Assembly (NCBI GenBank): GCA_965205605.1
Contig: CBDBHE010000007.1
Location: 384,001-448,000, forward strand
Direction of reading: 5' to 3'
DNA length: 64,000 nt
Source: Spirochaetota bacterium
GTDB taxonomy: Bacteria; Spirochaetota; UBA12135; COTS27; CBDBHE01
The notes beneath the pieces were generated by a model. The model was not told the origin of the DNA and made no database searches. It saw only the letters and a program-made list of their open reading frames with translations. Shown here piece by piece: positions 12,288 through 17,658 of the stretch. The position numbers were made by a program, and so were the translations under genes. Position 1 is the stretch's first letter. Each line of letters opens with the position of its first letter.

Positions 12288-13841
12288 ATGTGTAAGTGGA
12301 TAGAGTATTTTTCCAACCAAAAGCCTTTTCATAAAAAAGCTAATTTCTCTAAAGATTATCCTAATTTTTCTCCTAGTATTGACCAAATCGTTCTGTATCT
12401 TCATAAAAAATCAAAATGGCAAGACCTTCAAAATCACCTTAATTATTTAAACAAACTCCCAATCATTACTTTCCAATCTCGTGAAGTTTCTTCTCTTTTA
12501 ATCATGGTTGAAAATCATAAAAAAGTGATGATAAAAAAATTTTTTTATGATACCCTCGTTCAAAAATTTCAAAATGAATTTCATACTTATCTTTTAGGAT
12601 TATCCCTCCTTTATGAACATCTTTGCGAAGATTTGAGTATTGATTTACACAGTCTTTTTCCTTCTTTTCTTGCCCAAAGAAAAATAGCTCTTTATCCTGA
12701 AGAGTTTAGTTTACTTTATGGTACTCTTAAAGAAGACACCGTCTCTCAAAAAGCATTTTTGTTTTTAAATTTAATTCATTATCAAAAAATCAATCAGGTT
12801 TCCTCTCTTGAAAAAAAAATTATTCGAGATTGCTTAGGTGTTTCTTACACAAAAAGATTACTAGGACTTAAAAAAAATGATTATAAATACTTAGAATCAA
12901 AACCAGACTTAAGCAACCAAAACTCAAAACAACTTGAAATCTACTATAAAGTAAAAGAAGAAATTAGCATCAATCAAATTGATTTTTTAAGTTATACTCA
13001 AAACTATTTAAAAGATAAAAAAATAATTTCATGGTGTTGGTGGATGATTAGTCCTTTCTTGGCTTCGGATGTTTCGACATTACTCCATTTGATTTCAGAG
13101 GCTAAAAAAATCAAACGTGTGTATATTGACTTGTGCACTGAATCTGAAAAAATTTATCAAGATTATATTCAAAATAAAGATATTAAAGAAGAAACCATCG
13201 AAAAGGAAATTAAAAAAATATATCCCCCTACTTTAAAAAATTTTCAAAAAGAAATTTTTCCTTATGAAGTTTTACTTGAAAAATTAAAATTTCTTTCTAT
13301 TCCAGTAAAATGTTTTGGGTTTAACGGTATCGACCTCATAAATAAAGAACCTATTTTAATTAAAGAAAATAATATCCTCGATTACCCCATTGATCAAAAA
13401 TGGAAAAAAGCTCTTTATCAAGAATATCAAAATATTGATCAACTTAAAGAAAATGAAATCATTGTTTATTTTCATTTTATGAAACCCATGTTTTTTTTCC
13501 CACCTAATTTACAAGATTCGCGTATCGAAAAAATTATTCATACCGACCAATTCACTGGATTTGGTTCTCAAAAACCAGAAAACGCTTTGGCTATTTATTC
13601 TTGGTATCACTCAAGTGCTTCTAATTCTTTTATTTATCCTGATATCAAGAAAGCTTCTTTTAAAAATGAAAACATTATTCATTTTCCAAAAATTAATGAT
13701 CAGATTCCAAAGCTTAATTACGCTAAGTTTAATCAATTTAAACTCTATGACACGATGATTTATTCTTCAAAATCAAACGAAGGAGACGGAGAAAAGGATT
13801 TTGTTGAAAATCCAAATTCGATTTTTACTTTTTCATCTTAA
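12288..13841 (+). CDS. Hypothetical protein (517 aa)
   Basis: Long ORF in very AT-rich sequence with an upstream promoter; no confident family. Confidence 0.7.
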   Translation: MCKWIEYFSNQKPFHKKANFSKDYPNFSPSIDQIVLYLHKKSKWQDLQNHLNYLNKLPIITFQSREVSSLLIMVENHKKVMIKKFFYDTLVQKFQNEFHTYLLGLSLLYEHLCEDLSIDLHSLFPSFLAQRKIALYPEEFSLLYGTLKEDTVSQKAFLFLNLIHYQKINQVSSLEKKIIRDCLGVSYTKRLLGLKKNDYKYLESKPDLSNQNSKQLEIYYKVKEEISINQIDFLSYTQNYLKDKKIISWCWWMISPFLASDVSTLLHLISEAKKIKRVYIDLCTESEKIYQDYIQNKDIKEETIEKEIKKIYPPTLKNFQKEIFPYEVLLEKLKFLSIPVKCFGFNGIDLINKEPILIKENNILDYPIDQKWKKALYQEYQNIDQLKENEIIVYFHFMKPMFFFPPNLQDSRIEKIIHTDQFTGFGSQKPENALAIYSWYHSSASNSFIYPDIKKASFKNENIIHFPKINDQIPKLNYAKFNQFKLYDTMIYSSKSNEGDGEKDFVENPNSIFTFSS

Positions 13842-13847
13842 AAAAAA

Positions 13848-15815
13848 TTAAATCAATTCTACTGGGTCCATATCATATTCAATATAAATCGAAGGCGATC
13901 GCTTCAAACGATGTTTAAACTGATCTAATCCTTGAAAAAAACGATTCAAATCTTTAATTCTCATTAAATAATTCCACCGATAATGATGTTTAATTTTGCT
14001 CAAAAGACAAGGTGCTGGCCCTAAAATTTGAGCCGAATCACTTAAACTATCAGCTAAATTTTTTTTTATTCCCAAGCTAAACTCAATGAGTTTTTTTTCT
14101 TCTTTTGACCTAAGAACCATTCGAAACAATTTAGAAAAAGGAGGGTATGCAAATTCTCTCCTTACTTTAATTTCTTTTTCATAAAAAGCAAGATAATCCT
14201 GCTCACACCCATATTTAATCGCATAATGATCCGCTAAATCAGTTAAAACAACGACATTTCCTTTTAAAGATCGTCTTCCTGCTCGACCAGAAACTTGAGT
14301 AATTTGACTAAAAACTCGTTCGCTAGAACGAAAATCAGGAAAAGCTAAATATCGTTCTGGGTAAATCACAATCACAAGCTGGACATCTGGAAAATCATGT
14401 CCTTTAATAATCATTTGCGTACCAACGATAATATTGTACTTGTGATGAATAAAATCTTTTAAATGTTCTTTGATTTTTTTAGGGGTTGAAAGCTGATCCG
14501 AATCAAAGCGTAAGACTTTAGCTTTATCAATTTTTTCTACAATTTCTTCCACTAATCGTTCCGTACCAATGCCTATGGTAGAAAGAGAACCTTGCTTACA
14601 GCGCTCACAAGTTTTTATATTAATATTTTTTTTTTCAAACCCACATTGATGACAGAGCAGTTTTCCTCTTGCTTTATGATAGGTAAGACTCACATCACAA
14701 CGATAACAACGCCAAAAAAACCCACACTGCTTACAAAAAAGACTCGGTGCATAACCTCGATAATTAATATATAAAATAGATTGGTGTCCTTTTTCTAAAT
14801 TGCTATATAACATTTTTAAAATATCTCGATTGATAACGGTTTGGCTTCCTTTCTTAGAGCTCACCACTTGACTCTGAGGTAAGGGAACTCCTTGATAGCG
14901 AGTATCAAGAGAATAATAATTAATTTTTTTTTGTCTAGTTTGATAAAAAATTTCAACAGATGGGGTTGCCGAACCTAACACTAGAGGGACTTGATACTGG
15001 CGACATTTATACTGAGCGACTTGTCTTGCATGATAGCGAGGAACTTGATTATTTTTGTACGTCGGCTCATGCTCTTCATCAACAATAATGAGCCCCAAGT
15101 TAACCGTCGGAGCAAAAACCGCCGAACGAGGCCCAATAATAATATTAATTTTTTCTTCTAAAACTTCTTGGTAGAGTTGTCTCTTTTTTTCAGAACTAAT
15201 TTGAGCATGAATGACAGCAATCCTTTCTTGATAAAAAAAAGAAGTTAAAACGTCTTCGACTTGAGAAGTGAGACCTATTTCAGGAATCAGTAAAATCACT
15301 TGTTTGTTACGAGCAATGGTTTTTTGAATTAAATCAATATAAATATGTGTTTTCCCACTGCCGGTGATACCGTGAATAAGAGAAATATTAAAGGTAATCG
15401 CATTTTTTAAAATTTGAATAGCTATTTGGTTTTGTTTTTCTGTAAGAGATAAAATCATTTTTTTCTCTTGTTGATTAAGAATTTTTCTTTTTCTTTTAAC
15501 AACCTTAGAAGAAGAAAACGAAAAAAAAAGTGAAAGAGCTTCTCCTAAAGAAGCACTATAATACCGAGAAATCCACTGAGCAAGCTCAAAATCTTTTTTA
15601 GAAATAAGTGGTTTTTCATCAATAAGACTTAAAACAGATTTTAATTTATTAGTTTGTTTAAACTGAGAAGTTTTTGATTCTGAGATGATAAAACCGATTT
15701 TTTTTTTAGTACCAAAAGAAACAAGCACTCTTTTAAAAAGAGACCCAGTAAAAGAAGATTGATAAGAAAAAGACTGCTTAAGAGGTGTTTTAAAAACAAC
15801 CTCAACATAAATCAT
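13848..15815 (-). CDS. priA: Primosomal protein N' (replication restart helicase)
   Basis: GITGSGKT, DEEHE, GSATPS, CxxC zinc motifs, GTQMIIKGHDFP, QVSGRAGR. Confidence 0.97.
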   Translation of the reverse strand: MIYVEVVFKTPLKQSFSYQSSFTGSLFKRVLVSFGTKKKIGFIISESKTSQFKQTNKLKSVLSLIDEKPLISKKDFELAQWISRYYSASLGEALSLFFSFSSSKVVKRKRKILNQQEKKMILSLTEKQNQIAIQILKNAITFNISLIHGITGSGKTHIYIDLIQKTIARNKQVILLIPEIGLTSQVEDVLTSFFYQERIAVIHAQISSEKKRQLYQEVLEEKINIIIGPRSAVFAPTVNLGLIIVDEEHEPTYKNNQVPRYHARQVAQYKCRQYQVPLVLGSATPSVEIFYQTRQKKINYYSLDTRYQGVPLPQSQVVSSKKGSQTVINRDILKMLYSNLEKGHQSILYINYRGYAPSLFCKQCGFFWRCYRCDVSLTYHKARGKLLCHQCGFEKKNINIKTCERCKQGSLSTIGIGTERLVEEIVEKIDKAKVLRFDSDQLSTPKKIKEHLKDFIHHKYNIIVGTQMIIKGHDFPDVQLVIVIYPERYLAFPDFRSSERVFSQITQVSGRAGRRSLKGNVVVLTDLADHYAIKYGCEQDYLAFYEKEIKVRREFAYPPFSKLFRMVLRSKEEKKLIEFSLGIKKNLADSLSDSAQILGPAPCLLSKIKHHYRWNYLMRIKDLNRFFQGLDQFKHRLKRSPSIYIEYDMDPVELI

Positions 15816-16162
15816 TTTTGACTATTTTTACATTCTTTAGGGTTAGCACACTGAGTGGTCCAGGGGATAGCTTGTAGCCGCTTGCTATTAATTGCTTTGC
15901 CGCAATGAACACAAATCCCATATTTTTTATTATCGATACGAATTAAAGCCCCATCAATAGCCCTAAGTAATTTTTTTTCATTTTCAGACATTTCAATGGC
16001 TAAATCTTTTTCATACATATTAAAAGCGGCATCGACCATATCACCGACTTCATTTTTACTTAAATCACCAAATTTTTCTTTATCCCCGTAAAGTTGTGTT
16101 AAGACTTTTTTTCTTTCTTTTATCAGTAAGTTTTTATATGACTCAATTTTTTCTTGTTTCAT
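15812..16162 (-). CDS. dksA: DksA/TraR family C4 zinc-finger transcription factor
   Basis: Coiled-coil tip GDMVDAA (DxxDxA), ALIRIDNKKYGICVHCG...RLQAIPW...C. Confidence 0.85.
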   Translation of the reverse strand: MKQEKIESYKNLLIKERKKVLTQLYGDKEKFGDLSKNEVGDMVDAAFNMYEKDLAIEMSENEKKLLRAIDGALIRIDNKKYGICVHCGKAINSKRLQAIPWTTQCANPKECKNSQK

Positions 16163-16638: not shown

Positions 16639-17652
16639 CTAAAAAATTCCTTTTTCAATATAATCGATATTTTTCATATCTAAACTTAAATCTTTTTCAC
16701 TTATTTTTTCCTTAATATCTTCAATGATTGCCTCATTACAATATTTTTTAGATAATAAATCTTTTTCATTTTTTATAACAATTTGTCCAATTTCTTTCAT
16801 TTCATTCATCTTAAGAAAAAAATGAGTCCTAACAGAAAAAGGAATCGTATAAATGGTCTCATTAAAAATAGAGCTTTTTTCTAAACTAGATTCTTCTAAA
16901 TTATTACCTACAGGAGAGGTAATAGGTTCTGTTGTAATTTCTCCAAAGGTCTTGTAAGATTCTTTTAAAATTTGAGCCGCTTCTTGAAGAGCGGCTTCAG
17001 GCGAAATGGTGCCTTTTGTTTTAATATCAAATTCAAGTTCTTCATAATACTTATTATTACCAAAATGAAAAGACTTTACTTTAAAGCTTACATTTAAAAT
17101 AGGTGAATAATCTGCATCAATTGGAATGGTGCCTTCAATTTGAATCATTTCTCTAAAAGATTCACTTTCAACATAACCTCTCCCTTTTTCGACTTGTACT
17201 TCAAAATCAATTTCTTGTAATTTGTCATAAGAACAGATTTCGTGTTCTAAATTTCCAATGATAAGATTGTTATCCAAAGACAAAAAATCTTTACCTTTAA
17301 GCACACCACTTCCTTTTAGCTTCAGCTTAAAAACCCTAGAAGTCATCGTTGTGTCTTTAAAGCCAATAGCGAGTGCTTTTAAATTAGCTATAATTTCAAT
17401 GGTGTCTTCAAAGACCCCTTCAATATTTTGAAACTCATTGTTAACACCACTAACCCTAATTGCAACAACACTGTATCCTGGGATAACTGAAAGTAAAGTC
17501 CTCCTAAGAGAATTACCTATGGTGGTTCCAAATCCTTTTTCATAAGGTTTGGCAGAAAAAATTCCTCTGTTATTTTCTTCGGAAACTTTAATAAAATTAA
17601 CCTCCTTGGGCCTTTTAAGACTCGAAATTAATTTTGTTTCTACTATAGTCAT
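16639..17652 (-). CDS. rpoA: DNA-directed RNA polymerase subunit alpha (divergent)
   Basis: GFGTTIGNSLRRTLLS, EKGRGYV, IPIDADYSP, position between rpsK and rplQ. Confidence 0.95.
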   Translation of the reverse strand: MTIVETKLISSLKRPKEVNFIKVSEENNRGIFSAKPYEKGFGTTIGNSLRRTLLSVIPGYSVVAIRVSGVNNEFQNIEGVFEDTIEIIANLKALAIGFKDTTMTSRVFKLKLKGSGVLKGKDFLSLDNNLIIGNLEHEICSYDKLQEIDFEVQVEKGRGYVESESFREMIQIEGTIPIDADYSPILNVSFKVKSFHFGNNKYYEELEFDIKTKGTISPEAALQEAAQILKESYKTFGEITTEPITSPVGNNLEESSLEKSSIFNETIYTIPFSVRTHFFLKMNEMKEIGQIVIKNEKDLLSKKYCNEAIIEDIKEKISEKDLSLDMKNIDYIEKGIF

Positions 17653-17658
17653 TTCGAT

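Follow-up and report, generated by a model that had tools for sequence, protein, structure and literature searches.

[quoted passage not shown] The gene, rpoA (16639..17652, minus strand; 337 aa plus stop in the ORF list), is the sole alpha gene found in its genome, and the best-supported account, which we judge reasonably probable as a whole, takes it as a single, functional alpha whose CTD would have been kept for a role other than the canonical DNA and sigma4 contacts.

The window protein passed the rpoA equivalog model TIGR02027 (249.9 bits; cut-off 227.8) and scored 277.6 bits against NF003519 (cut-off 277), and its best PDB matches were RNAP alpha chains (lowest E 6.3e-47; 9.2e-37 for E. 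coli alpha). The gene lies in the alpha-operon order secY-infA-rpsM-rpsK-rpoA-rplQ, next to rpsK and rplQ, with the genes for S13, S11, alpha and L17 contiguous and all on the minus strand: SecY, IF-1, S13 and S11 are encoded on its upstream side and L17, then a DksA-like gene and priA, downstream, while rpsD is absent from the rpsK-rpoA interval. The host is a deep-branching member of the Spirochaetota and belongs to a small-genome lineage, a class-level clade of uncultured MAGs. Its genome (1.69 Mb, 8 contigs, 91% complete, 32% G+C) is the sole member of its own family in the genome collection, in which the class is represented by 10 species genomes, including four single-contig assemblies. 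One relative within the clade is named 'Spirochaetes bacterium COTS27' (AP019861.1).

Francisella has two rpoA genes and a heterodimeric-alpha RNAP, and the original prediction had proposed a comparable arrangement here, with the window alpha specialised for one position and a second rpoA paralog elsewhere. The genome-wide search did not bear this out: profiles TIGR02027 and PF03118 found one rpoA above cut-off, and no second one, in the 91% complete window genome. Exactly one TIGR02027 match was present in each of the 10 class genomes, including the four single-contig ones, and in 40 of 41 relatives, the one exception having bases withheld. Two lower-scoring matches in the window genome were rejected as second alphas: an alpha-CTD-like match of 15-16 bits is a 497-aa ORF directly upstream of infB, namely NusA with its C-terminal helix-hairpin-helix (HhH) domain, and a further PF03118/TIGR02027 match at 11.9 bits was put down to chance. 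Francisella alpha1 (E 4.4e-29) and alpha2 (E 4.5e-23), from PDB 6wmp, the heterodimeric alpha1/alpha2 RNAP of that genus, are detectable homologs of the window protein and are also divergent alphas; in contrast to the two rpoA genes of Francisella, one was found per genome in the spirochaete clade. A Francisella-like pairing, in which the window alpha would occupy just one position and a different alpha the other, is therefore highly improbable: the divergence of the window alpha at R191, the beta' contact, and in the CTD would fit such a role, and a gene could be missing from a 91% complete genome, but the rpoA count per genome stands against it, the changes are common to the whole clade, and both R45 and the dimerisation domain are intact. 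A lone rpoA and substitutions found in relatives too are two of the points that the original prediction had itself named as speaking against it.

The substitutions themselves, first noted in a gap-free manual alignment, held up when the window protein and 29 relatives were aligned (MAFFT L-INS-i) with E. coli K-12 RpoA translated from NC_000913. The CTD aligned without gaps, the window residue number being the E. coli number plus 10 (single residues are given below in E. coli numbering, and all features lie on the minus strand). VRSANCLK of helix 1 (E. coli 264-271) reads VRTHFFLK in the window protein (residues 274-281; 16810..16833), that is, S266T, A267H, N268F and C269F with R265 kept. NLGKKS reads YCNEAI (N294Y, L295C, G296N, K297E, K298A and S299I) within the segment KKYCNEAI (residues 302-309, E. 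coli 292-299; 16726..16749), an HhH loop without N294, G296, K298 and S299. In IYTIPF (residues 267-272, E. coli 257-262; 16837..16854) the D258/D259/E261 patch is replaced (D258Y, D259T and E261P). In the N-terminal domain (NTD), ARVEQRTDLDKL has become FHFGNNKYYEEL (residues 195-206, E. coli 190-201; 17035..17070), with R191H, R195N and K200E, and the R45 equivalent is retained in NSLRR (residues 47-51; 17500..17514), as in 30/30 clade sequences and 116/116 others. One further change noted originally, HEY to NEF, is present but ordinary, since relatives carry NEF, HEF or SEF. Against 20 non-clade spirochaete genomes, the window alpha-NTD was 35-46% and the alpha-CTD 21-36% identical, compared with 50-61% for S11, 47-62% for S13 and 40-52% for L17. 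With R191 present in 111/116 and N268 in 98/116 non-clade alphas, and with higher identities in S11, S13 and L17, the changes in the window alpha exceed ordinary drift.

The changes are shared across the clade. A protein search listed 120 matches, of which the first 24 (at least 41% identity), together with nine class-level loci, represent the same lineage; after four duplicates were dropped, 30 clade sequences were tallied against 116 others (20 loci from relatives and 96 database matches among those listed; mostly spirochaete). Position 268 was Y in 20 and F in 10 clade sequences and N in none (N in 98/116 others), and position 269 was F in 30/30 (2/116). Position 265 was R in 16, K in 10, P in 3 and A in 1 of the 30, as against R in 116/116. 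G296 was absent from all 30 (others: G 50, S 64); position 297 was E in 19/30; position 298 was E in 18 and K in 1 (others: K 56, Q 47); and position 299 was I in 22, V in 7 and L in 1, never S (others: S 50, V 34, I 17). Position 258 was acidic in no clade sequence and Y or H in most. In a tree computed from the NTD columns alone (83 rows, with two in three of matches P0025-P0120 left out), the aromatic type formed one clade of 30 rows (SH-aLRT 97) nested among canonical spirochaetes, while the H294/S296 type found in other Spirochaetota formed a separate group (support 69). On this tree, the aromatic state has a single origin in the class ancestor, separate from that of the H294/S296 type.

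Profile scores trace the same lineage. The gathering cut-off of the alpha-CTD model PF03118 was passed by 388 of 401 genomes of a phylum sample, and the ten class genomes, at E 1e-2 to 6e-9, were the weakest among those clearly holding rpoA (canonical: 1e-23 to 1e-28). Some incomplete genomes in the sample scored weaker still. The window protein fell below the cut-off of 23.8, with 20.1 bits by hmmscan and 23.2 bits in the genome search. Only 78 proteins among 1.84 billion representatives matched the window CTD at E ≤ 0.001. The phmmer CTD matches outside the clade were rejected as aromatic-type relatives, being proteins with 2-11 tandem alpha-CTD domains.

The contact between alpha-CTD and the UP element belongs to textbook promoter architecture and underlies class I activation; R265 is the most important DNA-contact residue of the domain, the backbone of G296 contacts DNA, and E. 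coli K297 and K298 face phosphates. The replaced residues of the clade fall on this surface. The 265 determinant comprises R265, N268, N294, G296, K298, S299 and E302 (PMC10853779, also the source for the 261, 287 and sigma 596 determinants). At these seven positions, in order, the window has R, F, Y, N, A, I and D, so that one residue of the seven (R265) is kept, and the shares of clade sequences with the canonical residue were 0.53, 0, 0.07, 0, 0.03, 0 and 0.07. Among the 31 CTD positions that are at least 70% conserved in 49 canonical sequences, the clade has replaced 6/7 in the 265 determinant and 6/24 elsewhere; as positions 265, 268 and 296 define the canonical group, only 294, 298, 299 and 302 count as independent, and each of these is replaced. 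Net charge over positions 265, 271, 291, 294, 297 and 298 was +5 in E. coli, +4.5 on average in canonical sequences, +0.8 on average in the clade and +1 in the window, and aromatic or histidine residues at six face positions averaged 4.9 in the clade and 1.35 in canonical sequences. The 261 determinant (257-259 and 261) reads I, Y, T and P in the window, its acidic residues having been lost. On the other hand, the 287 determinant (285-289, 315, 317 and 318) was changed no more than background CTD positions: the share of clade residues agreeing with the canonical-spirochaete consensus was 0.42 against 0.37 for the background CTD, in a surface that is weakly conserved everywhere.

The surface of sigma that faces the 261 determinant has changed as well. 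In E. coli, alpha D259 and E261 contact sigma70 R603 when the alpha-CTD is positioned beside sigma region 4 (PMC5511352, citing Ross et al. 2003). The primary sigma of the window genome aligns full-length with E. coli RpoD and carries A at 596 and Q at 603, and the -35-reading residues R584, E585 and Q589 are retained. Sigma loci were read in 30 genomes (9 clade, 21 others) from 41 matched relatives, the tenth class genome yielding no primary-sigma locus. Position 603 was Q, N or T in 9/9 clade genomes; the 21 others had R (16), K (2) or N (3) there. R596 occurred in no clade genome. Two of the non-clade genomes with N603 have alpha E261H, and the third (G011) has a canonical acidic alpha patch. 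The co-variation of alpha and sigma represents one evolutionary event, given the single origin of the clade, rather than a statistical correlation. Thus, as judged from aligned residues, both sides of the alpha-CTD-sigma4 contact are gone in the clade. As background, the regulator census of the window genome (91% complete) gave five matches to sigma70 region 4.

The original prediction had also suggested, as its second reading, that the lineage abandoned UP-element recognition. This part gained support from the clade-wide replacement of the 265 determinant, the loss of the 261 determinant and the replaced sigma-A contacts, and the loss of recognition is likely rather than established. It has to be weighed against the chance that alpha-CTD still binds upstream DNA in an altered mode, UP-like recognition being modified and not lost: R or K at 265 and K292-K294 would hold the backbone, and Y/F268 and F269 would act as a minor-groove wedge. 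Counted against loss of DNA binding is the basic residue at 265, which is R in the window and R or K in 26/30 clade sequences. A basic cluster also precedes the hairpin in the clade (K292, 72% conserved; K293, 83%; often K294), K271 is present in 97%, and the loop 290-299 together with positions 265 and 271 carries a charge of +3.1 (canonical +5.4); the cluster and the positive loop leave an altered DNA contact possible. Upstream of the single 16S gene, one sigma70-like promoter candidate was found against 2.9 expected from shuffles, and A-tracts precede the best candidate, an anecdotal observation that would suit an altered mode although in a 32% G+C genome it says little either way. Several features run against such a mode: i) E297 (19/30) and E298 (18/30) stand where the E. 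coli lysines face phosphates; ii) G296 is kept in 0/30 and R265 is P or A in 4/30; iii) the sigma4 residues that are relevant only with a DNA-docked alpha-CTD are gone in 9/9 clade genomes. On balance we regard the altered mode as unlikely, though the likeliest of the rival readings. The window genome also contains a CarD-sized ORF, so that another factor, putatively anchoring upstream DNA, exists in this organism.

The domain plan of alpha is otherwise retained. The alpha-NTD (residues 1-238; 16939..17652), the part for dimerisation and beta/beta' assembly, scored well above the Pfam cut-offs (PF01000 72.8 bits, PF01193 66.1 bits), had AlphaFold2 (AF2) pLDDT of about 82-93 over residues 21-230 and matched Thermus alpha-NTD chains in Foldseek with target-normalised TM of 0.87-0.90. 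A flexible interdomain linker (residues 239-259; 16876..16938) showed pLDDT below 50 in the full-length model, which was built with the 24-sequence clade alignment and covered 303-330 aligned columns of RNAP alpha chains in Foldseek. The alpha-CTD (residues 260-337; 16642..16875), with its fold kept and its contact surfaces remodelled according to AF2 and Foldseek, reached pLDDT 79-90 over about residues 261-330 of the same model, with predicted helices at 274-282, 288-292, 296-300 and 307-318, four as expected for an alpha-CTD. A model of the CTD only was weaker (pLDDT 61.3, alignment of 10 sequences); its top Foldseek matches were all alpha-CTDs, none at E ≤ 0.001, and it superposed on 1lb2_E, 3k4g_A and 1z3e_B with rmsd 0.9-1.1 A over 53-56 columns. 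In these models the window CTD is a compact alpha-CTD fold of four helices and two HhH-like units.

Conservation within the clade was as high in the CTD as in the NTD (mean identity 0.50 and 0.54), while between clade and others it was 0.29 and 0.40. Besides the new face, G279, V282, I303, M316 and Y321 are invariant in the clade CTD. A C-terminal tail, LSLDMKNIDY in the window (residues 322-331; 16660..16689), follows a clade pattern L-x-L-x-M-K-x-I-x-Y in which M and Y are invariant in the 24-sequence alignment; in other groups the M equivalent is 82% conserved (L in the H294/S296 type) and the Y position is unconserved. Such conservation points to new constraint, not to decay, as far as residue patterns can tell. 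Neutral decay, by which a CTD without particular function would be losing constraint in small host-associated genomes with few regulators, has some circumstantial backing: the window genome is small (1.69 Mb) and, at 91% completeness, has no OmpR-type Trans_reg_C domain and only two sub-threshold Crp-type HTH matches, the clade is relaxed at R191 and R265, and its PF03118 E-values are the weakest among rpoA-holding genomes of the 401-genome sample. We nevertheless consider it improbable, as the CTD is conserved to the level of the NTD, the new residues F269, Y/F268 and a hydrophobic 299 are each fixed in 30/30 alongside the five invariant residues above, the fold is confidently predicted, and the same state is present in a member with a 5.4-Mb genome (G004).

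In the NTD, the relaxation at position 191 had a less clear counterpart. PMC9177976 describes salt bridges from alpha R191 to beta' D410 and D413, so the earlier statement that R191 is needed for beta' assembly was roughly right, and the R191H change it rested on is there. R191 was kept in 11/30 clade sequences (the rest K 7, T 6, N 2, S 2, A 1 and H 1) compared with 111/116 others. A search for compensatory changes in rpoB/rpoC had been suggested; among the 30 genomes in which beta' was read we found no clear one and no pattern tied to alpha 191: position 413 of beta' was acidic in 29/30, the window genome included, and position 410 varies phylum-wide. The lone exception in this comparison was G008, in which both residues were lost.

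Compared with canonical RpoA as in E. coli, the window alpha is thus alike in operon place, in the two-domain plan with a flexible linker, in the NTD, in R45 and in the four-helix CTD; it differs in keeping 1/7 of the 265-determinant residues (R265; the clade keeps none reliably) and in its sub-threshold PF03118 score, and the clade differs in having neither an acidic 261 determinant nor the sigma-A R596 and R603 equivalents. Among spirochaetes, a canonical member, S. africana, has an alpha-CTD that touches the DNA minor groove, according to a preprint (10.64898/2026.02.09.704077). The H294/S296 or 'KHYS' type (Leptospira-like and other Spirochaetota; 64/116 non-clade sequences) also departs from the canonical loop, at H294, S296, Q298 and V/I299. 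Unlike the clade, it has R265 in 100% and mostly keeps N268, and the acidic alpha patch and sigma R603 are kept in 4/4 genomes with both read; its change, by sequence comparison, is independent of the aromatic type and milder. A functional parallel comes from Thermus, whose alpha-CTD lacks some DNA-binding residues and whose RNAP is unstimulated by the UP element (PMC5511352); the fold matches of the CTD-only model include 1doq, a CTD structure from T. thermophilus. Thermus is a precedent, by analogy, for a UP-insensitive lineage; the function of the clade CTD is read here from sequence, and the aromatic T-H/Y-F/Y-F motif with its paired sigma change is established here for the spirochaete clade only. 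In the literature searched, with most subscription journals outside its coverage, we came across no report of a divergent alpha-CTD in this lineage, of spirochaetes that have lost the 265 determinant, or of a class-wide aromatic alpha-CTD variant.

For the preferred reading, loss of the canonical upstream contacts with retention of the domain, we propose the following scheme. Two copies of the single alpha would form a normal alpha2-beta-beta' core. The minor-groove face (the 265 determinant) was rebuilt in the clade ancestor into an aromatic and acidic surface (H/Y267, Y/F268, F269, F295, E297, E298 and I299), with the CTD fold kept under purifying selection. The 261 determinant, the acidic patch that touches sigma region 4, was lost, and the matching sigma-A R596 and R603 were replaced too. 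As the most likely consequence, the RNAP would no longer read UP elements nor form the canonical alpha-CTD-DNA-sigma4 upstream contact, and the tethered CTD may be kept for another job, such as contacting regulators, either by the 287-type surface, which is largely unchanged, or by the new aromatic patch. A bolder version, which we advance tentatively, is that the former DNA face is now an aromatic/acidic surface on which a lineage-specific partner, or the other CTD, would dock, so that, with a sigma-A devoid of R596 and R603, the CTD would be purely a protein-protein module in an RNAP without UP-element/sigma4 upstream architecture.

UP-element contact is usually assumed wherever an alpha-CTD is present. 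The variant described here is natural and class-wide, and it retains the domain with both the DNA face and the sigma-contact patch replaced and with corresponding changes in sigma-A. If the loss of DNA binding is true, this lineage would show what role alpha-CTD plays when it is not a DNA reader, would caution against transferring UP-element logic to such genomes, and would offer two defined surfaces on which to look for new partners, namely the aromatic patch and the changed C-terminus of sigma4.

The primary sigma factor was consistent with a clade alpha-CTD that gave up canonical UP-element and sigma4 contacts. Throughout the class-level Spirochaetota lineage with the aromatic-type alpha-CTD, the equivalents of E. 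coli RpoD R596 and R603 were replaced, by A, S or T and by Q, N or T respectively, and the residues that read the -35 element were retained; in G000, the genome that carries the window, this C-terminus lies outside the window (L170/L176, G000:C6:121906-122655). The absence of both arginines from sigma-A of the clade was counted as evidence for this reading of alpha. As for activators, a search of the whole G000 genome (91% complete) yielded no OmpR-type Trans_reg_C domain and just two matches to the Crp-type HTH, both sub-threshold. Very few activators of the classic type that depends on the alpha-CTD appear to be encoded in it.

Non-canonical alpha-CTDs were also encountered elsewhere in Spirochaetota. 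A second type, with H294, S296, Q298 and V/I299 but with R265 retained, was widespread in Leptospira-like and other Spirochaetota, accounting for 64 of the 116 alphas from outside the clade (loci L017, L020, L027, L029 and L030 plus 59 database matches). A third form, in which R265, N268 and F269 are followed by G-A-T/N-E-M-I, was present in family f18, whose 38 sampled genomes had a PF03118 E-value of ~1e-8. Some public metagenome proteins (database matches P0122, P0124-P0127, P0129-P0136, P0139, P0145 and P0169) carried 2-11 alpha-CTD domains in tandem, in some cases fused to TPR repeats, sigma70 region 4 or a helicase.

Among other transcription factors of G000, NusA (497 aa; L002, 349-1842 of G000:C6, upstream of infB) contained one alpha-CTD-like HhH domain, scoring 15-16 bits on PF03118 and TIGR02027, and ended in an acidic tail whose two CxxC pairs could form a zinc ribbon. 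The CarD_TRCF_RID search of whole genomes returned only a CarD-sized match (159-183 aa), and no Mfd-sized ORF, in the three smallest class genomes (G000, G005 and G007), versus an ORF of >1000 aa in each of the seven others; Mfd may be absent from the smallest genomes of the class.

Within the window, rpsK and rpoA are separated by six bases (17653-17658), with no rpsD between them, where E. coli has it. Beside priA lies a forward-strand ORF of 517 aa (12288-13841), which had no match in NCBIfam at E <= 1e-5. Directly 3' of rplQ in the rpoA operon, a reverse-strand gene (15812-16162), whose stop overlaps the start of priA, encodes a DksA-like C4 zinc-finger protein of 116 aa that scored 70.5 bits on TIGR02420, far under the equivalog cut-off of 115.5. 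This protein may be an RNAP-binding factor co-transcribed with alpha, and is of possible interest as such.
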